Source of the DNA: Dictyostelium discoideum
Taxonomy: Eukaryota
Length of the DNA: 64,000 nt
Assembly: GCA_000004695.1 (NCBI GenBank)
Contig: CM000154.2
Span: 32,001 to 96,000, forward strand
Direction of reading: 5' to 3'
Positions 12,049 to 58,903 of this stretch are shown piece after piece (the stretch's first letter is position 1; the number at the start of each line of letters is the position of its first letter). Made by a program: the position numbers and the translations under genes. The notes beneath the pieces were generated by a model. The model worked only from the letters and a program-made list of their open reading frames with translations. It was not told where the DNA came from and did not search any database.

Positions 12049-15000
12049 TTATTGATAATCAGAAAGTGGTGGGCAAGAACAAACTAAATTTTTATCACCA
12101 TGAACGTTATCAATTCTACCAACGGTTGGCCAGAATTTTGAGGCAACAGTTGCAGGAGTTGGGAAAGCAGCTTTAGAACGAGAGTATGGATAATTCCAAT
12201 TATCAGCGACAATAACTTTTTCAGTGTGTGGAGAATTAACGAGAACATTATTTTTTCTGTCGGCTTTACCAGTTTCAATCTCTCTAATTTCCTCACGAAT
12301 TAAAATGAGAGCATCACAAAGACGATCCAATTCATATTTTGATTCAGATTCGGTTGGTTCAATCATAAGAGTATTTGGTACTGGCCAAGACATGGTTGGA
12401 CCATGGAAATTCATATCTTGAAGACGTTTAGCTACATCTTCAGCTTCGATACCAGCAGATTCCTTAAACATTCTAAGATCAATAATGAATTCATGAGCTA
12501 CCAAACCATGGGAACCAGTGTAAAGAATTTTATAGTGATCCTTTAATCTACTTGCCATATAGTTTGCATTGAGAATGGCGACTTGGGTTGCTTTTTTCAA
12601 ACCTTGACCACCCATTAATTTCAAGTAAACATAAGTGATTGGAAGGATTGAACTTGAACCCCATGGACCAGCAGAAACTGCACTCATTGCACGTTCACCA
12701 CCTACACCCTTTACAACGGAATGACCTGGAAGGAATGGAGCGAGATGGGATTTAACGCAAATTGGACCCATACCTGGACCACCACCACCATGTGGAATAC
12801 AAAAAGTTTTATGAAGATTTAAATGACAAACATCGGCACCAATATCACCTGGACGACAAAGACCAACTTGAGCGTTCATATTTGCACCATCCATATAGAC
12901 TTGACCACCATTGGCATGAATGATATCACAAATATCATTGGCACCCTCTTCAAATACACCATGAGTGGATGGATAAGTGATCATAAGAGCAGCCAATGTA
13001 TCTTTATGTTTTTCAGCTTTAGCTTTAAGATCGGCAACATCGATATTACCATTGGTATCACAATCTACAACAACAACTTTCATACCAACCATTGCAGCAC
13101 TTGCTGGATTAGTACCATGAGCAGAGACTGGAATGAGACAAACATTTCTTTGACTTTGACCAATTGAAGTTAAATAAGAACGAATTACCATTAAACCAGC
13201 ATATTCACCTTGTGAACCAGCATTTGGTTGTAAAGAACAACCATCGAAACCAGTGACTTCACATAACATATTTGAGATTGATTCAAACATTTCCTTATAA
13301 CCAAGTGATTGATTAGCTGGTACAAATGGATGAATTGAATTAAATTCTGGCCATGAAACTGGATACATTTCAGTGGTAGCATTTAATTTCATTGTACAAC
13401 TACCCAATGGAATCATTGCTGTGGTTAAACCTAAATCCTTCTTTTGAAGTTTATGAATATAACGAAGAAGTTCATGTTCTGAATGATATCTATTAAAGAT
13501 TGGATGAGTAAGGAATGGTGTTTGACGAGCAAATTCTTCTGAAATAACAGAGATTGTAGAGGTTTCTTTTTCCAATTGTTCTGGTGATGATAAACCCAAT
13601 GGTTTTGATGCGTGAGCTGAAAATCCATTCAATAATGCACTGATATCAGCAGAGGTAACAGTTTCATCCAATGAGATTGAAATTGATTTACTACAATATT
13701 GACGAACATTAATTTGACGTGATTCCAATTCTTTAATCATCATATCGGTCTTATCACCAGTGATAATTAAAACTGTATCAAAGAATGGACGATCCAAAAC
13801 TGTATAACCCAATCTTTTAATACCTTCAGCGAGGATGATAGCTTTTCTATGAACTGCATTGGCAATATCTTTAATACCTTGTTGACCATGATAAACTGCA
13901 TACATTGCAGACATATTAGCCAAGAGTGCTTGAGAGGTACAAATGTTTGATGTTGCTTTTTCACGACGAATATGTTGTTCACGAGTTTGTAATGCCATAC
14001 GGAATGCTGAATTACCTTGTTTATCTTTACTTACACCAATGATTCTACCTGGAAGTAAACGAGCATACTTATCTTTAGTTGAAAAGAAAGCAGCATGTGG
14101 ACCACCAAAACCTAATGGTACACCAAATCTTTGACTATTACCCAAGGCAATATCAGCTCCCCATTCACCTGGTGGTTTCAATAATGCCAATGAGAGTAAA
14201 TCAGTGGCAGCTACAACCAATGCATTGGCTTGATGAGCACGATCTGCCATCTCCTTATAATCGGTAATGACACCATTGCTTGATGGATATTGAACGATAC
14301 AACCAACTACATCCTCTGTGAATTTGAAATCCTTTGAATCGACTACTTCAATACGAATACCCTTTGGTTCTGCTCTAGTTTTAATGGTATCAATTGTTTG
14401 TGGATGACAATATTTATCGACCAAGAAAGCAAATGGTCCTTTACTCTTTGAAATGTTTACACACATTTGCATTGCCTCTGCAGCAGCGGTTGCTTCATCC
14501 AATAATGATGCATTTGACATTGGTAAACCTGTAAACTCTGATACCATAGTTTGGAAATTCAATAAACTCTCCAAACGACCTTGACTAATCTCTGCTTGAT
14601 ATGGTGTGTATGGTGTATACCAACCTGGATTCTCTAAAATGTTACGTTGAATTACATGTGGTGTAATTGTTCCATAATAACCCATGCCAATGAATGATCT
14701 ATAAACTTTATTCTTTTCTGCAATCTTTTTTAAATCCTTTAATAATTGATTCTCACCAATAACTTTATTCTCTTCAATATTTAATTCTCTATTTAATCTA
14801 ATATCCTTTGGAATTGTATATTCGATCAATTGTTCTAAACTATTTGGATTCTTTTTTGAAAGTTTTGATGTATTAATACTTTTTAACATTTCATTAATTT
14901 CATTTTCATTTGGTCCAATATGTCTTTTTGGAAATGTATCTAATGCTTGAAATATTGATTGTTTTGTTGAATAATTCTAAAAAAAAAAAAAAAAAATTAA

Positions 15001-15134
15001 AAAAAAAAAAAAAAAATAATAAAAAAATATTATATTTAAAAAAAAAAAAGAAATAATAATAATATAAATATTTATTTTATTTTTTTTTAAGTTCTTGGAT
15101 AATAATGATGGGTAAATGGGTGAAAAATGGGGGT

Positions 15135-15179
<45 letters not shown>

Positions 15180-15251
15180 AATTTGCAAACATACTCTAAT
15201 TAAATTAGATTTTAATTTATTTATTCCATTATTACGTAATAATTTTAACAT
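12049..15251 (-). CDS. gldc: glycine dehydrogenase (decarboxylating), glycine-cleavage system P protein, mitochondrial precursor; 2 exons: 15195..15251 and 12049..14976
   Basis: 946-aa ORF is unmistakable GLDC (PLP-dependent, N- and C-terminal halves). The frame continues upstream of the listed Met to '...[18 protein letters not shown]' and a TTTTTTTAG acceptor at 14977. A 57-nt first exon ([19 protein letters not shown]|GTATGT) 218 nt upstream supplies the start and a mitochondrial-type presequence, in phase. Confidence 0.85.
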
Positions 15252-15853
15252 TTTTATTTTATTATTTAAATTTATTATTTAAAATAAATATTACAACAAT
15301 CCAACAACAAAAATAGTTTTAATAAAATAAATAAATAAAATAATATTATCGAACAACAAAATAAGTGAACGAGTTAAAAAAAAAAAAAAAAAAAAAAAAA
15401 TGAAATTATTTAAAAATATCAAAAAAAAAAAAAAAAAAATTAAAAAAAAAAAAATTAAAAAAAAAACTAAAAGTGAAAAAATGTTAAACCAATCGATGAT
15501 GACTGTATGCATGAATTCAAAACAAAAAAAAAAAAAAAAAAAAAAAAACTTTTCGTTTTTCCATCCAAAATTACCGAAATAGATAAAGCCCAAAAAAAAA
15601 AAAATAAAATAAAATAAAAAAATAATGTTTAATCTTAAAAAAATAAAACTAAATCTCTAAATTTCTCTTTCTTTTTTTTTTTTTTTTTTATTAAAATAAA
15701 TAAATAAATAAATAAATAAAAAATAATAAAAAAAAAGAAACAATGGTTTTATTTATCCAATTATAAATTTATAATAAATTTTTATTATAATTTATTATTA
15801 TTTATTATTATTTATTTATTTATTTATTATTATTTATTATGATTTATTATGAT

Positions 15854-17162
15854 TTATTTTTTTAATTTTAATAAATTATCATGAGCTTTTTGCAAAGTTA
15901 AATCATCTTTACAAAAAGTGAAACGTACGAAATTTTCGGGTATTTTTTGATGATCATCACAATAGAAAGCAGAAGGTGGAATTGTAGTTACACCATATTC
16001 AGTTGTTAAATAACGAGCTATATTCCAATCACGTAAATGTAAACCCATACCAGTGATTGAGGTATCTTTACCTTGATCACCTTGTAAGTGTATACTTGAA
16101 GTATCACCCATGATAAAGTAAGTACCTTGTGGGATGACAGGATCTAAACCTGCTTGGGTGAGTGAATTTAAGAGAGTATCTCTTTTATTTTGATACATTG
16201 TTGCCAATTCTTTAAAGTAGTCTTTTATATTTGGTTGCTCCAAAGCTATGGCTACAGCTTCTTGAGTTGGTGTTGGTACACTGAATGGCACATATTGATG
16301 AGTGTTTGCAATTGCTCCAATGATATTGGAAGGACCGATACACCAACCTACTTTCCAACCAGTGATTGAAAATGTTTTACCAGCTGAACCAATTGTGATT
16401 GTTCTTTCCCACATACCAGGTAATGTTGCGAATCTATGATGTTCTTCACCATCGAATGTCATCCATTCATATACTTCATCACTGATGACAGTTGTATTTG
16501 GACCATGTTTAGCAACGACATCAGCAATCTCTTGTAACTCTTCTTTACTATAAACTTTACCAACTGGATTATGAGGATTGTTTAAAATGATTAATTTGGT
16601 TTTATCTGTGAATGCTGCTGCCAATTCTTCCTTATTAATTTTCCAATGTTTTGATGATCTTTTTTTATCTGAACTACCAGCTTGAGACGACTCCTCCTCT
16701 TTTAATGTTACAAATTTTGGTATACCACCTGCCATTAAAATTGGTCCAATATAGATATCAAAGAATGGTTCAATTAAAATAACTTCATCACCTTCATTAA
16801 CAATCGATGAAATCGCTGCAAATAATGATTCAGATGCTCCTACTCCAACCATAATCTCTGTCATTGCATTCAATTCTCTACCAAAGTATGGTGAATATAC
16901 TGATGATAATGCTTTAACCAATCTAATATGTCCTGGTGAACGTGTATATTGATTAAATCCACCAACTTCAATTGTTTTTATCATTGCATCTTTTACAAAT
17001 TTTGGTGGTTCAAAATTTGGAAATCCTTGTCCTAAATTAACTGCATTATATTTAATTGCTAATGGTGAAAATTCTATTTTTATATAATTAAATTAATAAA
17101 TAAATTAATAAATAAATTAAAATAAATAAATAAAATAAATAAATAAATTATTAGTATTATTA

Positions 17163-17194
<32 letters not shown>

Positions 17195-17326
17195 ATTATT
17201 ATTATTTATAATTTTTTTTATTATTATTAAATTCATACCCAACCACACTGATGGTCCAAAAGAACTTGTTTGTTTACTTGGTTTAAAAGTATAAGTCATT
17301 AATCTTTTTACTGTGTTTCTTAACAT
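15854..17326 (-). CDS. kynurenine/glutamine-type class I aminotransferase (KAT/CCBL-like), mitochondrial-type N-terminus; 2 exons: about 17240..17326 and 15854..17073
   Basis: ORF with '...NAVNLGQGFPNFEPP...', 'DEVILIEPFFDIY', 'NNPHNPVGKVYSKEEL' (fold-type I PLP aminotransferase, KAT subgroup). The frame extends 5' of the listed Met to an AG acceptor at 17074/75. The upstream exon MLRNTVKRLMTYTFKPSKQTSSFGPSVWL(G|GTATGA) joins in phase 1. Confidence 0.8.
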
Positions 17327-17844
17327 TTGAAAAAATAAAAAAAAATAAAAAAATATGAAAAATATTTTTTACACGATAAAACTTTTTTAAAAAAAAAAAA
17401 AAAAAATAAAAAAAAAAAAAATTTTAATTACCAAAGGAGTTTTAAGAACCAACGCCAAAAATAAAAAAAAAAAAAATGAAAATAATTAAAAAGTCAAATA
17501 AAAAAAAAAAAAATATCTTTTTTTTATTTAGAACAAAATAAAAGAATAAAAATTTTCTTTAAACAATTCAATTTTTCTTTTTTATTTTTTTGTATTTTTT
17601 TTTATTATTTGGAAATTAGTTGTGGTAAAGTATAATACAAATTAAAAAAAAACATTACATTTTACCACCATTTAAATTTTATTTGGCAGATAAATATTAA
17701 AAATAATCTTTTGGATATTTATTTATGATGACATAAATATATATATATTTTTTTTTTTTAATTTTTTAATTTTTTTTTATTTTTTTTTAATTTTTTTTTT
17801 AAAAAAACTAAATCTTAAGTTTTTTTTCTTTTATAAATTAAATC

Positions 17845-42320: not shown

Positions 42321-44726
42321 TTATTTAATTGATTTTAAAATTGATAAATTTAAAGGAATATAAATTAATGATAAAAATGGGAATAAGAGTGTTGAGTATT
42401 GGTCATATTGTTTAATAATTGTTAATAAAAATATGAAAACATTTTGATCATTTAAAATGTAATGACTGAATAAATATAAAATAACTGGTGGTGAAAATAA
42501 TAATAACAAAGAATAAACTATTAATTTCTTAATTGTTAAAATTAATTTTCTAATTATATTATTAATATTAATATTATTTAAATTATTATTTATATTATTA
42601 TTATCATCTAAATTATTATTATTATTATTAATATTATTTGTAATTTGAGAAATAAAACAAAGTGGTATTGATAAAATTGAAGCAAAAGTACAAAATGAAA
42701 AATTTAATAATGACATTGTTGTAATGAAAATTAAAATTGGTAAATTACTAAAAACAAAAAAACTATTTGAACCACTCTTTAAATGATTTCTATTACTATT
42801 TGTAATAATTTGAGAATAATCGTTATTATTATTATTATTATTATTATCATCTGCTGCTGCTGTTGCTGATTTTGATTCTTTAAAAGTTTTAATTGGTTCA
42901 TTCTTTGGATAAAACATTTTATCTAAAATTGGTAAAACTATTAAAAATAAAATAAAATATGAAAAGCCAAAAATACCAAATAATCCAATAATTTCAAACT
43001 AAAATAAAATAAAATAAAATAAAAATAAATAATTAATAATTATTATCTTTTTTTTTTTTTTTTTTTTTTAAAAAAAAAATAAATTATATATATTTACATT
43101 TGATAAATAATTTAAAATTATTGAAGTTGCATTTGTAAAAGTTTGAGGTAATGAAAATAATGAAATACCAATTAATTGAAATAAAGCTACAATAGTTATA
43201 GAGTAAACAATATCTTTTGGTGTATCTAAACATTCAAATGTACCTAATTCTTCAAATAAATTCTTTTTCTTTTTCAAAGCTGCTGTTGTTTCAGTTGTGG
43301 TGGTGGTTGAAGTTGTAGTAGTTTTAGTTGATTTTGGTGTGAAAATAGTTGGAGAAGTGAAAATATTTGAAAGTGAAATTAATAAATAAATTACACCAAA
43401 TGCAAGAGGTGATATGATTAATCCGATTGAAATCATATATTCACCAATTGAAATATAATGAAATGGTGATGGTAATAGATAGTAATAAAAGGATTGATGT
43501 AATTTCTCCAAAAGATTATTTAATGATCTAATCGTACCAATTAATACTCTTGCACCCATAGTTGAACTAACACCTGATACACCCAATGTGATGGCATCAA
43601 TATGATATTTATTGAATAGACCATGATCACCAGTTGGTATACCAATTGCTTGATTTAACATGAAACGTGCCAATGTTCTATGTTCAGCTGGTATGAAAAG
43701 TAATTCATCATTTTTATTCATAGAGGATGGTGATAATAACATACTCTTTGAATAACCTTCCCTCTTTGCTAATCTACCAACAGTATTAATTAAATCAAGA
43801 TTTGGTAATTGACCATTCGATCCTTCTGCCAATACATAAACATGATCACTTTGATATTTTTTATTTGATACTTCAATATTAATTGCTGCTTGAATTGCAC
43901 CTGCTCTTGGGAAATAATTATTATTTATAAAATCATTATTATTATCATTGTTATTATTATTATTATTATTAATATCTTTAGAAATCATAGTTGAATCATG
44001 ATAATCATGTAACCAACTCTTTAAACCAATATTATTATCACTTGAAGATTGTTCTAAAAATGTATCAGAAATTACTAATATTAAATCTTTTGCTAACCAA
44101 ATATTACCTTTCTTATGTAAATATTGCATAATGGTTAAAGCAACACCAACTGATGATTCAGTACTTGATGATGATGATGATGATGATGATGTTGTAGCTG
44201 TTGATGATGATGATTCATCTGATGAATTAAATGAAGTTGATAATACAATTGATTCTCTTCCATCGGATTTTGGTGCTCTTAATACTGAATAAACATTATA
44301 TCCTTGTCGTTTAATTTGATTACTATTATTGAAAGTATTATTTGTTGCTGTTGTTGATGATGATAATGGTATATTATATCTATGAATATATGATTCAATA
44401 CCAATATCTTTTAATTGTTCAATTAACCATTGAGAACATGATTTTGATCTTTCGTATGGATCAATCTTTACTTTTTTACCATGTAAACTTTGATGAAGTT
44501 TATTATATCTTGCTAGATGATTTTGAAATCCATTTGAAAATTGATGAACTTTTGAGCCATCACTATAATCGAATGTGACCCTTGCTGTACCTGGCATCAA
44601 TGCATTCTCTGACATATAGGTATTATGTGCATTCTTTGGATAATAATATATAGATACTATACCTCCAATATATAATAATATACTTTTATAATTTAATAAT
44701 AAAAATATTAGAAATGAGAATAACAA
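42321..44726 (-). CDS. GPI-anchor transamidase component Gaa1/GPAA1 homologue, at least 2 exons (about 43068..44726, about 42321..42999)
   Basis: Luminal domain with the Gaa1 hallmark 'YMSENALMPG' and downstream conserved blocks. Exon 1 ends '...YLSN|GTAAAT'. Exon 2 begins after TTTAG with 'FEIIGLFGIFGFSYFILFL...' and carries the multi-TM C-terminal half. Confidence 0.75.
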
Positions 44727-45604: not shown

Positions 45605-48600
45605 ATGTATCCTCGATTTGTTTTATTTCTGTTTATAGTTTTTAATTTTTATTATATAATTTTTGCAGATGATCCTAAAAGTAAAATTTTTTTTTTCCCC
45701 CACTACACACTTAAATCTCAAAAAAAAAAAAAAAAAAAAAAAAAATAAATATCTAATTCTGTTTAAATTATACAGTACCAAAAATTATATCATCAAAACT
45801 TTTAGGTAATGGATCATATTCAAATTCACCAACGCAATGTTTACAAAGGGTTTATGAACTTGTTGAAAAAAATGGTTACAGTATTGTGGCAACACAAGAT
45901 TATTCAATTGTTACAGAAAATTCAACACATTCCCTTTTACTAGCCTCATATTTTTCAAATGTTGATACTACTGGTGTTTACTGTGATTTAGTTTTAAATA
46001 GAAATAATGTAGATCAAATAACCTTAAAGAGTTTATTTCCAATTGACTGTTCAGGTATTTAAAATATATTTTTATTATTATTTTTTTTTTTTTTCTTTAA
46101 TTATTTATATTATTTATTTAATTATTTTATTTATTAATATTTTATTATTTAAACAAATTGAATATTTTTTTTAAAAAAAAAAAAAAAAAAAGGACCACCA
46201 CATCCATTACAATTTAATATTAATGGTACAAAATTTATTATTTCATTTAGTGGTGGTATTGGAAGTAGTTCATTAAGTTTTAAAATTTTTGGGTTAAAAA
46301 AAGATTTACTATCAATTTCATGTAGAGTCTTAGAAGGACCATTTATGTGTGATTTTTCAGTTGATGATTTAAGAAATGCTATATTTAAAGTAGTGATTTA
46401 TCATGATGTTAATTCAAGATCAAAATCAACGATAACTAAATTTGCATTAGTGGATTCTTTATCAAGATCATCAGAGTTTAGTTTGGACATTTTAAGTGAT
46501 TATCATTATGTTACCGATTCTAATGATATTTTAAACTACCAAGTATATCCATTACCACCAACTGGTTCAGAGTATTTATCAATTCCAACAAATATTATAA
46601 AAACTGTTGGATCATTTTCATCAAAGAGACCAAATATAATGTCATCGATTGGTTCTGTAGTATTTTTCGTATACAATTTCGATGGTAATTTATATAATTA
46701 TATATCAAAGTTTCCGTCTCTTAATTATGGTCTTACAGGAACCTATGAATTTGGTGTATATGGTAGTTTGGAAAAAAATGTGATCACACGAAAAAGATTA
46801 CCAAACTCTTTACCAACTTGTATTGGGGAAACCATTGAATTCCTTATCATTGATAGCGCCACTAATTCATCTATGATTGAATTCCAATGTCAATCCAATC
46901 AAGCATCACCACCAAATTTTGTAGATACAATTTCCATTTATCCAAATCTAGTTTACTTTTCTTCACCTTATGGAATGGGTGAGGGAAATGAAAAAGATTA
47001 TAAATTTAAGTTATCAACATTGGTACCAAAATATTCAACACGTATCAGTGGAGCTTTTTTACTTTCAAGCAAAACATTTTTTCCAATGGGTATACCACCA
47101 AGAGATAATACATTACCAATTGATACAAAACCACCATCAATAGAGTCTGTAGAATATATTCGACTACCAAATTCAGTAATTATTATTAGAGTTCATATTA
47201 AAGATGATATATCAGGTTTTAAGAAAATGTTACTTGGTAATTCATTGATTGGAGTATCGGATTTAGTATCGGGTGATTTAAATGATGGTTATTATGAAGC
47301 TCAATTAACAATTCGTACATATCCTCAAGTTTCAGTACAATTATTCGATAGGGTTGGTAATGAATTTAATCCAAATTCAGATTTTGCAAATCCTTTCATT
47401 GGTATGGATTATCAATTCCCAAGTGAGCCATCATTAATTTCGACTTTTCTCGATATTAATACATTTTATTTCGATAAGAATGATATTGATCTTAGTAATT
47501 TTGGTTCAGTTGTAACGGTTTATATAAATTATGAAAATTCATCACCAGAACAAGTGCCATTCTTTGTAGTATTATTAACAGGTGAATGGTTAATAAATAA
47601 AGACATAACGCAATATCCAATGTCATGGGATTCAAATTTAAAAACTTTTAAAAAAAAGTTTTATTTACCACCAAGATTAAATACTGGCAATATTGAATAT
47701 CAATTATTTGTTTCACCATTAAATATTGGTAGGGAAACACTTTATTCTAAATTTGGTAAAGCTGCTTTGCTTAGAGTAAAATCAACTCTATCAGATGAAA
47801 TGCCACCAATTGTAAGTAAAGCTTATTTCAATGTTAACTCTCTAACATTGAATAAAGGTGATAGTGTTTTGGTTTCATTATTCTTAGAAATCGATGATCC
47901 AATCAATGGTTTAAAGAATGGTTCATTATCAATCTCTTCAGATTTCGATTCAATCAATGGTTATCATTTTCAATTTGATCCAACAAGTTCAATCAATAGA
48001 AGTCCATACTATGGTATCTATCAATTTTCATTCAAATTAACTGGTAATTGTAGAAGTCAAATCTTTTCAATTCAATCATTAGAGTTAATAGATAGATCCG
48101 ATCATTTCTCTACAACGATCAATGCTTATTCGTTGAGTCCATTATTTAAAATTAATGATTTACCAACTTTAAATGTAACTTGTAATAATCCATTAGATAG
48201 TGTACCACCATTCATTCATTCATTAACTCTCTCAAGATCATCAATTGGTACCAATAGTACTAATAGAGGTATTGTTATTGATTTAGTTATAAATGATACA
48301 GACTCTGGTGTTTCTCAAAAACATATACCATTTATTTATTTCGATGATTCTGAAAGTAATCAATTCATTGCTAGACCAATTATAATCCCAGAGAAATCCA
48401 CATCAAATTCAGTTCATTTTAGATTAGAAACAACTTTACCCTTTAAAATGGGTGCTGATACTGGTACTTTTATTTCAGTTTATGGTATCTATGATAATCA
48501 TTTAAATATTAATGGTTACTCAAGTTCAGATTTATTAAATATTAGTATTCAATCAATTATTGAAACTCAATTACCAGAAACACCAATTTTAGAATCTTAC

Positions 48601-49350
48601 TCAAGTGTTTTAATGTCTGGTTCAAGTTTTTTCGTTTATGGTAATAGATTAGGTACAGATTCTTCAATTGTAATTGTAATGATTGATTTCTTGGATGGAA
48701 ATGGTTATAAAGTTGTAAATTATGAATCTAGACTTGGTTCAGCTATTAAAGTTGGTTTTGTAACACCATATTTAAATGAGAAATCATTTTTCATTAAAGT
48801 TATCGTTGATTCAAATCAGTCCAATGAATTATTAGTTATACCAATTCCATTTTTAGAATCACCAAATTCTGAAGAAACTTTAAAAAACTATTGTGAAGGT
48901 ACTTGTGGTTATCCTGAAAGAGGTTATTGTCCAACCGATTTAAGTGGTTGTGTTTGTAATTCACCATTTAGTGGTAAAAGTTGTTCAGAAGTTTCAAGTG
49001 GTACAGAAATTAAACCAGGTGAAAAACCTGACATTATTTCAAATCATACAGATGGTGGTGGTGAAACTTTTTCTTATTCAATTGAAATTTTAGAATTAAT
49101 AGAATATGGTTTGATTGGTAATGTTGTAAATAGAATTAAATTTGATAAATGGACATTTAATAATTTATCAACAAGTGATTTACCACAATATGTTTATTCA
49201 ACAAATTTCATTTATAATTCAGTTTCAACCAATATAAATGTTTTTATTAAATATTTTAAAAAAAGAGATCAAGTTTATTTTGCAAATCGTTTATTGTAAA
49301 TATTTTCTTTTTAAAAAAAAATTAATATATATACAATAATAATATTTATT

Positions 49351-49389
<39 letters not shown>

Positions 49390-50107
49390 AATTAGGGATA
49401 TGGCAGAAGGAACAATTAAATATCAAGTTGAAATGAGTAATTATCAATTTGCATCACGTATAAATTCATTATCATTAGTAATGAGAACAACAATTAATTC
49501 TAATCAAGAGAATAGATGTGTTGTTAAAGCTCAAGGTAATTCATCAATTTCATCTGATTTTGTTCAAATTCAAGTTAATGGTATTTCAATTTTTGGAAAA
49601 TTAATTAAATTGGCAATTATTGATCAAAAAATTCAACAAGTATCAAATACAATATCACAAACTTTAGATGGTTATAGTGAATTAAAAACTGGTTCATATA
49701 TTCAAATTAATTTACCATATTATTCAAAATCAGTTTCATTAGATCCTGGTAAGTTTTCTAAAATTTAAAATAGAAAATAATAAAATAATAAAAATACTAA
49801 TTTTTTTTTTATTTTTTATTTTTTTTTATTTTTTTTTTTTAATCATTAACAAAATTTAGATTTTTCTGTTTTATTAAACCCTGATGCAAGAGATAAATGT
49901 ATTGAAGGTTCAAATGATGATTCTGGTTTAACACAATCTCAATTAGCTGGTATTATAGTTTCATGTGTATTTGCTGGTTGCGTTTTAATTTTTGTCATTT
50001 CATTAACACTTTATAAGAAATTCAAATATTCAACAATTATTATGAATATTAAAGAATTTAAAAGAGTAAAATTAATGAAAAAACAAAATGAAGTTTCAAT
50101 GTCATAA
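45605..50107 (+). CDS. large type I transmembrane glycoprotein (about 1340 aa) with signal peptide, repeated beta-rich extracellular modules, a Cys-rich EGF-like module and the conserved 'DFSVLL...TM' C-terminal exon; 5 exons: 45605..45680, 45776..46054, 46193..49295, 49396..49748, 49860..50107
   Basis: Exon 1 MYPRFVLFLFIVFNFYYIIFADDPK(A)|GTAAAA is a signal peptide. All junctions are in phase (phase 1, 1, 2, 1). EGF-like 'CEGTCGYPERGYCPTDLSGCVCNSPFSGKSCSEV'. The last exon 'DFSVLLNPDARDKCIEG...LAGIIVSCVFAGCVLIFVISLTLYKKFKYS...' gives a single TM helix plus a short tail. Confidence 0.7.
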
Positions 50108-50213: not shown

Positions 50214-51227
50214 TTATTGTTTTAATTTTGGATTAAAATTTTTAGAATTAATTAAGTAATTTACACAATCAGTTAAAGTAGTTTTGAGATCAATATATGG
50301 TTCAGTTAATTTTAATGGTGAAATTGAAGTTAATTTATGTTGGTGAACTTGAATTGAGGGATCAATTGGTGTTGGATCGATTTGATATTGTGGGAAAATT
50401 TCTTTAACTAATTCACCCATACCAGCAAAAGAAATTACAGTATTTGCCATTAGGTATCTTTTATGATCGAAATTTTCAGTGGATTTCAATGCTTTGATAT
50501 GAGCTTTTACAACATCACGAATATCAATTAAACCAACCATTCTATTGGTCACCACTTTATCACCAATGTTCATTAGAGAATTTCTAAAAGTTGTTAAACT
50601 TGTATTTAAACTTGGATAGCCTTCAACTGGTGGACCTAATACAAAGGCAGGATTAATGATGATAATTTCAAATGATTTAACTTTATCGGCATTATTCTCC
50701 TTATAGGACCATGTTGCTTTCTCTGCTAAATATTTACTATAACTATATGGATTGGAAATGTTTGAACTATCATTCCAATCAGATTCATCATATTGTTCTT
50801 TCTTTTTCTCTAAATCAATTATTGCAGCAGTCGATGATGTAATAATCACCTTTTTAATAGTTGATTGGTGACGTGATGCAGCTTCCAATACTCTTAAATT
50901 ACCTTGGATTGCTGGCTCAATGATATCACGTTGTGCATTGTCTGCTTTATAGACATAAGGTGATGCAACATGTAAAATACCTGTTGCACCTGCGAATATA
51001 CTATCATAATCGGCATTTTGAAGGTCACCACTTTCGATCTCTAATTTCTTTTCTGCATTCTTTAATTCTAAAAGGAATTTATGTTTATCAACATTACTTT
51101 TATCCCTAACAATTGCAACGACCTTTTCAATTTCATCATCTAATAATAATTCTTTAATAATTGCTGATGCTATATAACCAGTTGCACCTGTAACTACAAT
51201 TTTATTATTTTTTAAATGTTCAGCCAT
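50214..51227 (-). CDS. NAD(P)-dependent epimerase/dehydratase-family (extended SDR) reductase, cinnamoyl-CoA / dihydroflavonol reductase-like; single exon
   Basis: N-terminal Rossmann motif 'VTGATGYIASAII', catalytic 'YSYSKYLAEK' (YxxxK), 337 aa. Confidence 0.75.
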   Translation of the reverse strand: MAEHLKNNKIVVTGATGYIASAIIKELLLDDEIEKVVAIVRDKSNVDKHKFLLELKNAEKKLEIESGDLQNADYDSIFAGATGILHVASPYVYKADNAQRDIIEPAIQGNLRVLEAASRHQSTIKKVIITSSTAAIIDLEKKKEQYDESDWNDSSNISNPYSYSKYLAEKATWSYKENNADKVKSFEIIIINPAFVLGPPVEGYPSLNTSLTTFRNSLMNIGDKVVTNRMVGLIDIRDVVKAHIKALKSTENFDHKRYLMANTVISFAGMGELVKEIFPQYQIDPTPIDPSIQVHQHKLTSISPLKLTEPYIDLKTTLTDCVNYLINSKNFNPKLKQ

Positions 51228-51241
51228 TTTTTTTTATTTAC

Positions 51242-51474: not shown

Positions 51475-51895
51475 TATTCAGGTTTTTCGATTAAATGACT
51501 AAGGTTCCATTCTTTAAGTTTATCCTGTACAAAAAAAAAAAAAAAAAGAAAATAGAAAATTAATGATTAATAATTATGTGGTGTAAATTTTTTTTTTTTT
51601 TGCACAATTTTGATCTTAAATTTTAATAAATGAAAAAAAAAAAAAAAAAAAGATAAAAAAAAAAAAAAAAATATTATTATAATATATAAACCATAAATAC
51701 CTTAATGCAAACTTGATATTCTTCCCATTCTTCAACACATTCCATTGTCGCATTTCCTTTTAAAAATGCAGTTGTATACCATTTATTAAAACATGCATCA
51801 TGTCTTTCTTTTAATTCTTTACATAAAGTTGGATCCAACATTGGGTGTTTCTTTTCTTTATTATCTTTATTATCTTTATTATCTTTGTTTGACAT
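51475..51895 (-). CDS. TRIAP1/Mdm35-family twin Cx9C protein (intermembrane-space lipid-transfer cofactor), 2 exons: 51701..51895 and about 51475..51524
   Basis: Exon 1 '...CKELKERHDAC FNKWYTTAFLKGNATME CVEEWEEYQVC IK|GTATTT' has two Cx9C motifs and matches human TRIAP1 'CFNRWFAEKFLKG...C...YQQCVQK'. The small second exon after TTTGTACAG encodes DKLKEWNLSHLIEKPE*. Confidence 0.65.
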
Positions 51896-52159
51896 TTTAT
51901 TTCTATATTTATATATCTATATATTTCTCTGTTTGAATTGAAAGTAAACAATCTGAAAAAAAAAAAAAAAAAAAATTAAAAAATAAAAAAAAAAAATTTT
52001 AAAAATAAAAAAAAAAAAAAAAAAAACTAGAAAAACGAAAGATTACATGTCTTTTTTTTTTATTTTATTTTATTTTTTATTTATTTTTTAATTTTCATAT
52101 GAAATTTTTTATTTTTAGATTTTTTTTTTCTTTTTTTTTTTTTTTTTTTTTTTCCAGAT

Positions 52160-52485
52160 TTATAAATTTGAATTTGGAATTTTAAAATTATGATAATAAA
52201 CCCTTTCATTAATTGGTGTAAAAGGGATAGGATCAGAACCAGTGTAAATTAAAGATGGTAATGAGTTTTTAGATTGACAACGTTGTTCAATAATATTTGC
52301 CATCCAACCAGTTGTACGAGCTATAACAGAGATTGCAGAAAATAAAAGTGTTGGTATATTTGATTGATGGAATACTGTTGCATTGTAAAAGTCAACATTT
52401 GCATGTACCTTTAAAACATCAAACATTATCTCTTCAACACGTTCTGATATTGTTTGTAATGAATTATCATCATCATCATCTTCAC

Positions 52486-52558
<73 letters not shown>

Positions 52559-53401
52559 TTTATTTATGATTGATAATTGTTTTGACCATTCTTTAATTAT
52601 TGGTGTTCTTTGATCAAATTCATTTGAAAATCCAATGATTCTTTGATTATTGTTTATCATTTTCATTATTTTCTTATCAGCATCTTCAGGTGATTTCATT
52701 GGTTGTAATAGATACATTACAGCTTCACTACTACCACCATCATCTAATACGCCTTTCATAGTACCAATTGATGATCCAATACAACTATAAACATCTGAAC
52801 CTGTTGATGCACTTAGTCTACATGAAAATGTTGATGCTGTTTCAATACCATGCTCAGCATACAATATTAATGATACATCTAATGCTTTAACATATTCTAA
52901 AATTGGTTCTTCATCTTGTTCTGTAGTGAATTTGTTATTATTATTGATATTGTTATTGTTACCTCTATTTAATAATTTTAAAAAATGTCTTGCAAAACTA
53001 TCATTTACTTCAGTTAGGGTATTAATTCTAATACCATTTGATGAAAAATGATACCAATAGAATAGAATAGATGGAAATGAACCAATTAATCTATTACTAA
53101 TTCTATAAATATCATTTTGTTTTGATTCTGGTGAAATCGTAGAGTAGAATGAACATGCTGTCTTTAAAACATCGATTGGATGTGCATAAATTGGTATCCT
53201 CTCTAATACTTGTTTTAATGATTCTGGTATATATCGATAATGTTGTAATTCACTACGATATTCTATTAACTCCCTCTCTGTTGGTAATTCACCATAAATT
53301 AATAAAAATGATACTTCTTCAAAACTTGATACTGCTGTTAAATCTATATTTATATATATAATTTTTTTTTTTTTTTTTGAGAAATTTTTTTTTTTTTTGG
53401 G

Positions 53402-53440
<39 letters not shown>

Positions 53441-53529
53441 ATAATAATAATAACGTTACCTTTTATATCATATCCTCGATAGTAAATACTATCTTCATTT
53501 ACCAAACATATTTTAGATTCATTTGACAT
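52160..53529 (-). CDS. citrate synthase-family protein (about 417 aa) with poly-Asn insertion and apparently non-canonical active-site motifs; 2 exons: 53460..53529 and 52160..53343
   Basis: Exon 1 MSNESKICLVNEDSIYYRGYDIK(G)|GTAACG. Exon 2 begins after TATAG with DLTAVSSFEEVSFLLIYGELPTERELIEY..., continuing '...ILYAEHGIETASTFSCRLSASTGSDVYSCIGSSIGTMKGVLDDGGSSEAV...IIGFSNEFDQRTPIIK...ARTTGWMANIIEQ...'. The overall fold is clearly citrate synthase; see findings for the substitutions. Confidence 0.75.
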
Positions 53530-53685
53530 TTTATTCTTTAATATGGATAAAATAATAAAAATATAAAAAATTCTAATAAAAAAAAAAAAAAAAAAAAAAA
53601 ATAAAAATAGTGTGTGGTATTTTTATTTTTATTTTTTTTATTATTATGTATACAATGAATTATTAAATAAAATTCTTTAAAAAGA

Positions 53686-53721
<36 letters not shown>

Positions 53722-53935
53722 AATTAATTTTTGATGTTCAATTTTTATAAAAAAAATTTAAAAAAAAAAAAAAACTTAAAAAAAATGTATAGAAATATAA
53801 AATTAAAAATTATAAAACAAAAGATGCAAATCATTATCATTATCATCTAAACAATACTTATTTTTTTTTGGTTTTTTTTTTTTTTTTTAAAAACCATTGT
53901 TTAGGCGATCCAAATTTTCAAATTTTCAAAAAAGG

Positions 53936-53973
<38 letters not shown>

Positions 53974-54246
53974 AAAAATAAAATTAAAAATTAAAAAAAT
54001 AATTGTCACCTCCAAAAAAAAAAAAAAAAAAATAAAATAAAAAAAAAAAATAAAAAGATATTTTTTTTTTTTCTATTTTTTTTTTTTAATCATATAAACA
54101 TCGGCAAAATTGTATATACCCACACAAATTAAAAAATAATAATAAAATTTTTTTATTTTTTTTAAAAAAAAAAAAAAATATAAATAAACACATACATTAT
54201 AAAAACTTTTTTTTTTAAAAAACTCAACATCACATGATACTATGTC

Positions 54247-58903
<4,657 letters not shown>

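Follow-up and report, generated by a model that had tools for sequence, protein, structure and literature searches.

Can a member of the citrate synthase family that has lost the catalytic histidines of the family still be an enzyme, and if not, why would it be kept? The question is raised by a gene on the minus strand of a 64,000-nucleotide stretch of Dictyostelium discoideum DNA (GenBank assembly GCA_000004695.1, contig CM000154.2, positions 32,001 to 96,000), hereafter the window. A reading made without database searches (the sequence-only reading) had described the product of this gene as a citrate synthase paralogue in which two of the three catalytic residues appeared to be replaced. Few active sites of central metabolism are as conserved as that of citrate synthase, and it was kept in all 117 other homologues that we inspected. 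We find that the window protein belongs to the citrate synthase superfamily, that both histidines of its catalytic triad are gone in D. discoideum, D. citrinum, and D. firmibasis, and that the gene has been under purifying selection. We consider it rather probable that the gene encodes a lineage-specific pseudoenzyme, derived from a probably peroxisomal PrpC-type synthase and kept for a role outside catalysis, in binding, regulation, or scaffolding.

The two-exon model proposed from the sequence alone holds: exons 53460..53529 and 52160..53343, both on the minus strand, splice to a coding sequence of 1254 nt that encodes 417 amino acids and a stop. Exon 1 (70 nt, ATG at 53529..53527) encodes MSNESKICLVNEDSIYYRGYDIK and the first base of the next codon. 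It is followed by a 116-nt intron (53344..53459, minus strand; GT..AG, phase 1) that contains T- and A-homopolymer runs, and then by exon 2 (1184 nt, ending with the TAA stop at 52162..52160), which encodes residues 24–417, the body of the citrate synthase fold. In D. discoideum, D. citrinum, and D. firmibasis the intron lies at the identical position, without which the annotated proteins of the three species cannot be reproduced. The N-terminus encoded by exon 1 is ∼15 to 20 residues shorter than that of catalytic orthologues and lacks their 'GLxG' segment; three-frame translation of 53440-55150 revealed no upstream exon that supplies it, and similarity to the D. purpureum protein begins at the exon 2 boundary. 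The peptides 'YAEHG', 'GVLDDGGSSEA', 'IGFSNEFDQRT', and ARTTGWMANIIEQ are all found in the window protein.

We found that the window protein matches Pfam family PF00285 over profile positions 8–350 of 357 (E = 7.1e-80; 269 bits, where the cut-off is 27). In phmmer searches the best match of solved structure was PrpC 6s6f (E = 5.9e-78), with 3o8j and 3tqg also near, while unnamed bacterial-type proteins matched with E down to ∼1e-91. We then compared folds using an AlphaFold2 model of the exon 2 product (residues 25–417, built from an 81-sequence alignment; the first 24 residues lie outside the model). The model has a mean predicted local distance difference test score (pLDDT) of 88.4 and a predicted template modeling score of 0.89, and its low-confidence segments include two Asn-rich insertions and the C-terminal tail. 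The top Foldseek matches were PrpC structures 6s87, 6s6f, 3tqg, and 3o8j (template modeling scores 0.75–0.83, probability 1.00). The citrate synthase fold that had been read from the sequence is thus seen by Pfam, AlphaFold2, and Foldseek alike, and it is the all-helical two-domain fold of the family. The NCBIfam models give a further measure of distance: the window protein scored 300.7 against a TIGR01800 cut-off of 421.3, which its D. purpureum (430.6) and Heterostelium (466.6) counterparts pass, and 336.7 against an NF009006 cut-off of 550; E. coli PrpC passes both. It falls below every curated functional-family cut-off, and the sole other NCBIfam matches were weak ones to citryl-CoA (coenzyme A) lyase models, far under their cut-offs. 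We conclude that the window protein is a citrate synthase superfamily member whose closest relatives are PrpC-type 2-methylcitrate synthases.

Residues were assigned by three alignment methods: phmmer pairwise alignment; MAFFT with E. coli GltA and PrpC (MG1655) and 13 homologues; and a hidden Markov model (HMM) built from 77 catalytic-type homologues only, which aligns the window protein with high posterior probability. GltA residues were counted without the initiator Met, giving H264, H305, D362, F383, R387, and R407, which we take to be the numbers used in the E. coli literature. The catalytic triad is H274/H320/D375 in the pig enzyme, H264/H305/D362 in E. coli GltA, and H235/H274/D325 in S. 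enterica PrpC (PMC9765439); the corresponding columns of E. coli PrpC in our alignments are H235, H274, and D325, the same positions. We refer to the six sequences that share the substitutions described below as the clade: the window protein, those of two other D. discoideum assemblies, two from D. citrinum, and one from D. firmibasis.

The first triad histidine (GltA H264, PrpC H235, pig H274) is D225 in the window protein. It lies in 'GVLDDGGSSEA' (52721..52753, minus strand; residues 221–231), which replaces 'GPLH-GGANEA' and carries one extra Asp before it (D224-D225), and the 'GGANE' part reads 'GGSSE' throughout the clade, 'AN' having become 'SS'. The replacement noticed in the sequence-only reading is therefore given by all three alignment methods. 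The second triad histidine (GltA H305, PrpC H274, pig H320) is N264 in the window protein and Asp in D. citrinum and D. firmibasis. Here 'IGFSNEFDQRT' (52604..52636, minus strand; residues 260–270) replaces 'MGFGHRVY(K/R)xxDPR', so that 'GFGH' has become 'GFS(N/D)' across the clade, with Gly changed to Ser, and four residues of the CoA/adenine loop after N264 are deleted; the Tyr of 'HRVY' is deleted in every clade member. The HMM alignment scores the second histidine position as deleted rather than substituted, which is the only difference among the alignment methods.

The third triad residue is kept. D341 (GltA D362, PrpC D325, pig D375) lies in 'ANVDFYN' (52382..52402, minus strand; residues 338–344), which corresponds to 'PN(V/L)DFY'. 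The sequence-only reading had rightly seen the loss of the histidine from 'GFGHRVYK..DPR' but had placed the catalytic Asp in the same motif and taken it as replaced; the Asp of 'DPR' is in fact retained as D267, together with R269 (GltA R314, pig R329), 'DPR' reading 'DQR'. Its count of two replaced catalytic residues out of three thus stands, with the identities corrected to both histidines rather than one histidine and the Asp, and its view that the protein is not a bona fide citrate synthase is supported by these substitutions. Immediately upstream of D341, 'KKMFPN' has become 'LKVHAN', with the loss of one CoA-loop Lys; the first Lys of 'KKxFPN' is Leu or Cys across the clade. We considered whether H337, in 'KVHANVD', could be a compensating histidine and rejected it, as this residue is Asn in D. 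firmibasis.

The substrate-binding residues are altered in part. The histidine of 'YAEHG' (52847..52861, minus strand; residues 185–189) is retained as H188, as had been noticed, although it corresponds to GltA H229 and pig H238 and is a substrate-binding residue, not a member of the triad. In 'SVIAR' (52316..52330, minus strand; residues 362–366), GltA F383 (pig F397) is replaced by S362, and GltA R387 (pig R401) is kept as R366. In 'NSLPS' (52253..52267, minus strand; residues 383–387), which replaces 'LIRPS', the oxaloacetate Arg contributed by the partner subunit (GltA R407′, pig R421′) has become L385. D. citrinum and D. firmibasis carry four extra residues, 'LPCQ' (NSLPCQLPSL), exactly at this lost inter-subunit Arg, and the segment is further remodeled there. 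The oxaloacetate site is thus half intact, with R269, R366, and H188 kept and the partner-subunit Arg replaced by Leu385. In citrate synthase, oxaloacetate is contacted by His320, Arg329, Arg401, and Arg421*, the acetyl group by His274 and Asp375, and CoA by loops 314–321 and 365–369 (bioRxiv 10.1101/2024.11.06.622199); the CoA loops and residues so assigned are the elements altered in the window protein.

The changes extend beyond these motifs. Clade-wide, 28 of 109 near-invariant columns (conservation of 95% or more among the 77 catalytic-type sequences) are changed; in one of them the His of 'GWxAH' is Asn. A PROSITE-type citrate synthase signature, G-[FYAV]-[GA]-H-x-[IV]-x(1,2)-[RKTQ]-x(2)-[DV]-[PS]-R, is present in 111 of 122 retrieved homologues and absent from the window protein. 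The sequence-only reading had allowed that its motif alignment might have been shifted; phmmer, MAFFT, and the 77-sequence HMM agree on the placement, and the HMM alignment and motif scans found no shifted or alternative canonical motifs elsewhere in the protein. The same analyses rule out that 'DDGG' and 'SNEF' are loop insertions with the canonical motifs elsewhere. Counted from the substitutions, the pocket has lost ∼4 basic groups and gained 3 to 4 acidic ones, a shift of ∼7 charge units. This shift from basic to acidic would argue against binding of the anionic oxaloacetate and acyl-CoA.

How widely are these changes shared? We searched ∼5.8 billion protein clusters and listed the best 120 matches, all taxa together. 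The D225 and N-or-D264 types of substitution are common to all six clade sequences, whereas 'HGGxxE' is kept in 117 of 117 homologues outside the clade, and D. purpureum, Heterostelium, Acytostelium, and the other eukaryotes retrieved keep GPLHGGANE, GFGHRVY..DPR, NLDFY, and LIRP(S/T). To the question whether other dictyostelids share the substitutions, the answer is therefore that D. citrinum and D. firmibasis do and that D. purpureum, Heterostelium, and Acytostelium are canonical. By this distribution of sequences, the histidines were lost after D. purpureum had split off and before D. firmibasis did. Gene order at the D. purpureum locus matches that of the window (upstream gene, citrate synthase-like gene, UPF0203, 3-beta-HSD/epimerase, Gaa1), and its intact gene is therefore the positional orthologue of the window gene. 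The term paralogue applies relative to the organism's other citrate synthases, but the gene is also this orthologue of an intact PrpC-type gene. With the window and D. purpureum proteins as queries, no intact PrpC-type protein of D. discoideum, D. citrinum, or D. firmibasis was among the matches listed; thus, these species appear to have no PrpC-type gene besides the dead copy.

The window protein is 47 to 53% identical to the intact dictyostelid orthologues, compared with 75 to 82% among the dictyostelids outside group 4. The D. purpureum orthologue (locus L001, 10001-11390; protein P0004) is also divergent, with at most 59% identity to other dictyostelid orthologues, extra introns, and a three-residue insertion in the 'GHRVY..DPR' loop (NSESNGDPR). 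PrpC-type synthases are found throughout the dictyostelids and in transcriptomes of other eukaryotes (P0004-P0019, P0123), all with a tail resembling peroxisomal targeting signal 1 (PTS1), and the nearest relatives of these eukaryotic proteins are bacterial 2-methylcitrate synthases at 47 to 55% identity (Shewanella and E. coli PrpC compared directly). These sequences hint at an ancient enzyme of bacterial type that is targeted to peroxisomes and whose place in amoebal metabolism has yet to be described. Within the clade, the window protein and those of the two other assemblies labeled D. discoideum (GCA_054859385.1, our locus L004, and P0121) share 96.5% amino acid identity, and synonymous divergence (dS) from the window is 0.077 for the citrate synthase-like gene and 0.091 for 3-beta-HSD, which is high within one species; these assemblies may come from strains that diverged deeply or from cryptic species.

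Among four clade coding sequences the ratio of nonsynonymous to synonymous substitution rates (dN/dS; Nei-Gojobori) was 0.11 to 0.24, significantly less than 1, with Fisher p values from 3e-5 to 5e-25; the adjacent 3-beta-HSD gene, which serves as a baseline against the same three relatives, gave 0.06 to 0.14. The open reading frame (ORF) is intact in 6 of 6 clade sequences from three species. We conclude from the dN/dS values that the window gene is not a decaying pseudogene. The constraint is unevenly distributed: the retained family-invariant columns are variable within the clade in 0 of 76 cases, as against 41 of 246 other columns (p = 1.4e-5), while 4 of the 26 changed, formerly conserved columns vary, which is the background rate. 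Thus, the fold core is still constrained, and the old active-site positions are no longer special. In Tajima tests with dictyostelid outgroups, the D. discoideum lineage evolved faster than that of D. purpureum (p = 0.006–0.07), and D. purpureum evolved faster than Heterostelium (p = 0.002–0.004). The latter result indicates that relaxation began before the histidines were lost, and constraint on the gene seems to have relaxed across group 4 ahead of that loss.

The C-terminus bears on where the protein may reside. Bacterial PrpC stops right after a conserved '...R', whereas eukaryotic orthologues add a tail of 10 to 14 residues that ends in -SKL, -AKL, -SSL, -ASL, -SAL, or -PSL, which suggests PTS1-mediated import into peroxisomes. 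The window protein has this eukaryote-specific extension and ends in Ser-Asn-Leu (52163..52171, minus strand), an ending conserved in 6 of 6 clade sequences, which may be a weak PTS1 signal. Ser-Asn-Leu is an alternative PTS1 of human D-aspartate oxidase (PMC8260693), and both PTS pathways operate in D. discoideum (PMC3465988).

Taken together, these results suggest the following history. The ancestor would have been a eukaryotic PrpC-type (bacterial 'type I') 2-methylcitrate/citrate synthase with a PTS1-like end, of the kind still intact in other dictyostelids. After the D. purpureum split, both histidines would have been lost (His to Asp; His to Asn or Asp), and in the same interval four CoA-loop residues would have been deleted, the partner-subunit Arg, the conserved Phe, and the CoA-loop Lys lost, and several acidic residues gained in the former anion-binding pocket. 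Given the loss of the histidines and of these CoA-loop, Arg, Phe, and Lys residues, the window protein can most likely no longer condense acyl-CoA with oxaloacetate. It would possibly still be peroxisomal through -SNL, and the remnant half-site of H188, R269, D341, and R366 may still bind a carboxylate ligand. In this account the homology, the fold, the missing residues, the orthology, the clade distribution, and the selection are shown, whereas the loss of activity, the localization, and the non-catalytic role are inferred. We also entertain, as possible but somewhat unlikely, a more committed form of this history, in which the sole, ancestrally peroxisomal PrpC-type synthase was made non-catalytic and its re-charged site (two His, one Arg, and one Lys lost; three to four acidic residues gained) binds a different ligand, such as a cation, a metal, or a protein partner.

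Several observations weigh against a pseudoenzyme. The loss of catalysis is read from residue identity alone, and D341, H188, R269, and R366 are strictly retained, which could mean residual or altered catalysis. The replacing residues (Asp, Asn/Asp, and Glu) are chemically capable, and most of them are conserved in the clade. With ∼15% amino acid divergence, the clade is shallow, leaving site-specific tests with low power, and the intact D. purpureum orthologue is itself fast-evolving, so that some of the divergence predates the histidine loss. Finally, -SNL is a non-canonical PTS1, which tempers the peroxisomal part of the proposal.

Of the alternatives, the one that survives best, although we think it unlikely, is that the window protein is a neofunctionalized enzyme, which would carry out a different reaction or use a different substrate by means of D341, R269, R366, and H188 together with an acidic cluster of D224, D225, N/D264, and E/D265. 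Instead of condensing an acyl-CoA, it might, for example, act on a carboxylate by metal-dependent or general-acid/base chemistry. The strict conservation of the four retained residues is what such an enzyme would show; its new reactive residues are largely common to the six sequences, the purifying selection is comparable to that on a neighboring genuine enzyme gene (3-beta-HSD), and the basic-to-acidic shift of ∼7 units suggests a new ligand class rather than decay. However, the changed positions vary at the background rate (4 of 26), and residue 264 is Asn or Asp and residue 265 Glu or Asp, unlike a newly fixed catalytic centre; moreover, the CoA loop is damaged, and no known enzyme family with such a motif set was matched among the NCBIfam models.

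It is quite improbable, in our estimation, that the protein is a weak or specialized (methyl)citrate synthase that works with D341 and substitute residues. Such an enzyme would have at its disposal the catalytic base Asp, three oxaloacetate ligands, the overall fold, and a tail like that of the presumably active peroxisomal orthologues, but it would have to do without both triad histidines, four CoA-loop residues, the CoA-loop Lys, the Phe, and the inter-subunit Arg. Single substitutions of pig H274 or H320, or of E. coli H264 or H305, cut kcat by orders of magnitude. The His motif is kept in all 117 other homologues, and the score below every curated functional-family cut-off likewise speaks against a working synthase. 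Least credible of all is a decaying pseudogene or an artefact of annotation, assembly, or alignment, a reading that could draw on the fast divergence (∼50% identity to orthologues as against 75–82% among other dictyostelids), the low-complexity insertions, and the truncated N-terminus but that is already largely refuted by intact ORFs and a conserved intron in six independent assemblies from three species, by dN/dS of 0.11 to 0.24 with highly significant tests, by 76 of 76 retained family-invariant columns unchanged in the clade, and by the concurrence of three independent alignment methods.

The window is extremely rich in AT (GC content 22.8%), and its gene structure is Dictyostelium-type; an A33 homopolymer on the plus strand within the intron (53406-53438) and a 49-base T-rich run just past the stop codon (52105-52153) are typical of Dictyostelium noncoding DNA. 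The insertion of exactly 24 Asn in the middle of the domain was correctly described: an (AAT)24 microsatellite (52487..52558, minus strand) encodes Asn286-Asn309 as an inter-helix insertion, directly followed by the acidic 'SEDDDDD' (52466-52486, minus strand). Tandem Repeats Finder places 26.3 copies of a period-3 unit at 52486-52564 (97% matches), and the insertion sits at the junction of two phmmer segments aligned to PrpC 6s6f (chain residues 282/283). Its standing as a special oddity does not hold up, however, as its length differs between strains and it forms a surface segment of low confidence (pLDDT 54–67). In other D. discoideum strains the tract reads NKNKNNNSEDDGDGDD and NNKNNNNNNNNSEDDGDD, so that the 24 Asn of the window compare with 'NKNKNNN' and 'NNKNNNNNNNN' in the two other assemblies, and D. 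citrinum and D. firmibasis have other low-complexity strings at this position. The (AAT)24 tract is a strain-polymorphic microsatellite that is ordinary for Dictyostelium and no functional oddity. The second Asn-rich insertion, RGNNNNINNNNKFTTEQDEEPIL (52898..52966, minus strand; residues 150–172), is clade-specific, lies in a surface loop, and differs in length among clade sequences (pLDDT ∼55). The exact 417-residue sequence was absent from the protein collection searched; databases may already label the gene 'citrate synthase-related'.

Directly downstream lies a UPF0203 (TRIAP1/Mdm35-like) gene (51677-51895, minus strand; Pfam PF05254, E = 1.7e-14), whose product has a tandem 'KDN' tripeptide repeat at its N-terminus, MSNKDNKDNKDNKEKK, and whose position is conserved in D. 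purpureum and D. firmibasis. It is followed by the intronless NAD-dependent epimerase/3-beta-HSD gene (50229-51230, minus strand). A large ComC_SSD/DUF7743-family gene (∼45781-50104) stands between 3-beta-HSD and Gaa1 (42333-44690); it is found at the same place in D. discoideum, D. citrinum, and D. firmibasis (13437-17770 in locus L002, from one of the relatives), whereas in D. purpureum Gaa1 comes directly after 3-beta-HSD (locus L001, 13547-13655) with no such gene between them. The ComC_SSD/DUF7743 gene is thus a lineage-specific insertion or rearrangement beside the locus.

What would an inactive protein mean for the organism? If the window protein is inactive, a PrpC-type 2-methylcitrate or citrate synthase should be struck from the metabolic reconstruction of D. 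discoideum, and its propionyl-CoA would need another route. Dictyostelium is reported to have B12-dependent enzymes, and the B12-dependent alternative to the methylcitrate cycle is the methylmalonyl-CoA mutase pathway (PMC8085122). Literature searches covering Dictyostelium citrate synthase-related proteins, methylcitrate synthase and the methylcitrate cycle, citrate synthase pseudoenzymes, and horizontal transfer gave nothing on this gene and no relevant citrate synthase pseudoenzyme. One Dictyostelium omics supplement gave no match to methylcitrate or to further citrate synthase terms, and the two of its 9 citrate synthase passages that were displayed both concerned cshA. As far as that literature shows, no 'dead' member of the citrate synthase family would have been described before this one. 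The citrate synthase family and the concept of a pseudoenzyme are both already well known, and since many enzyme families include pseudoenzymes, the finding adds an increment and does not change the field. Its main value lies in the pair of dead and intact orthologues in D. discoideum and D. purpureum and in the correction of a metabolic annotation. A tractable model organism, a dismantled site, clear selection, and an intact syntenic sister orthologue together offer a natural experiment on the passage from an enzyme to a pseudoenzyme or a new function.

Among known systems, the closest relatives of the window protein are the bacterial PrpC enzymes of S. enterica (3O8J), P. aeruginosa (6S6F/6S87), and C. 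burnetii (3TQG), at 40 to 48% identity. It resembles them in its fold, in its core length once the insertions are set aside, and in four retained residues of the oxaloacetate site (one Asp, two Arg, and a His), and it differs from them in lacking the triad histidines, part of the CoA loop, the counterpart of F383, and the partner-subunit Arg, as well as in its two Asn-rich insertions, short N-terminus, eukaryote-type tail, and scores below the family cut-offs. With the intact dictyostelid orthologues (D. purpureum DICPUDRAFT_50092, the 'citrate synthase' of Heterostelium album and of Cavenderia fasciculata, and the Acytostelium subglobosum protein) it shares a gene lineage, the PTS1-like C-terminal extension, and the exon 2 boundary, but these orthologues, unlike the window protein, keep the canonical motifs and pass TIGR01800. 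D. discoideum also has CshA, a citrate synthase reported to be peroxisomal (Huang et al. 2004, as cited in PMC12750705). CshA and the mitochondrial citrate synthase belong to the same superfamily and the same organism and are absent among the PrpC-type matches listed. We take both to be active members of different subfamilies, a distinction drawn from the literature.

Uses of the citrate synthase scaffold apart from catalysis have precedents. Caulobacter CitA reportedly controls the cell cycle independently of catalysis, and the 14-nm filament citrate synthase of Tetrahymena is another non-catalytic or moonlighting use of the scaffold. Both are examples of a selected role beyond the making of citrate; both proteins, however, keep an intact active site, whereas that of the window protein is dismantled. 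A different departure from the family is the citrate synthase-homology module of citryl-CoA lyase and ATP-citrate lyase (6HXP; PRK06224), a truncated relative with the citrate synthase fold and a different chemistry, to which the window protein gave weak matches. Against the citryl-CoA lyase models it scored 57 bits, compared with cut-offs of 212 to 245, and it is instead a full-length derivative of the PrpC type.

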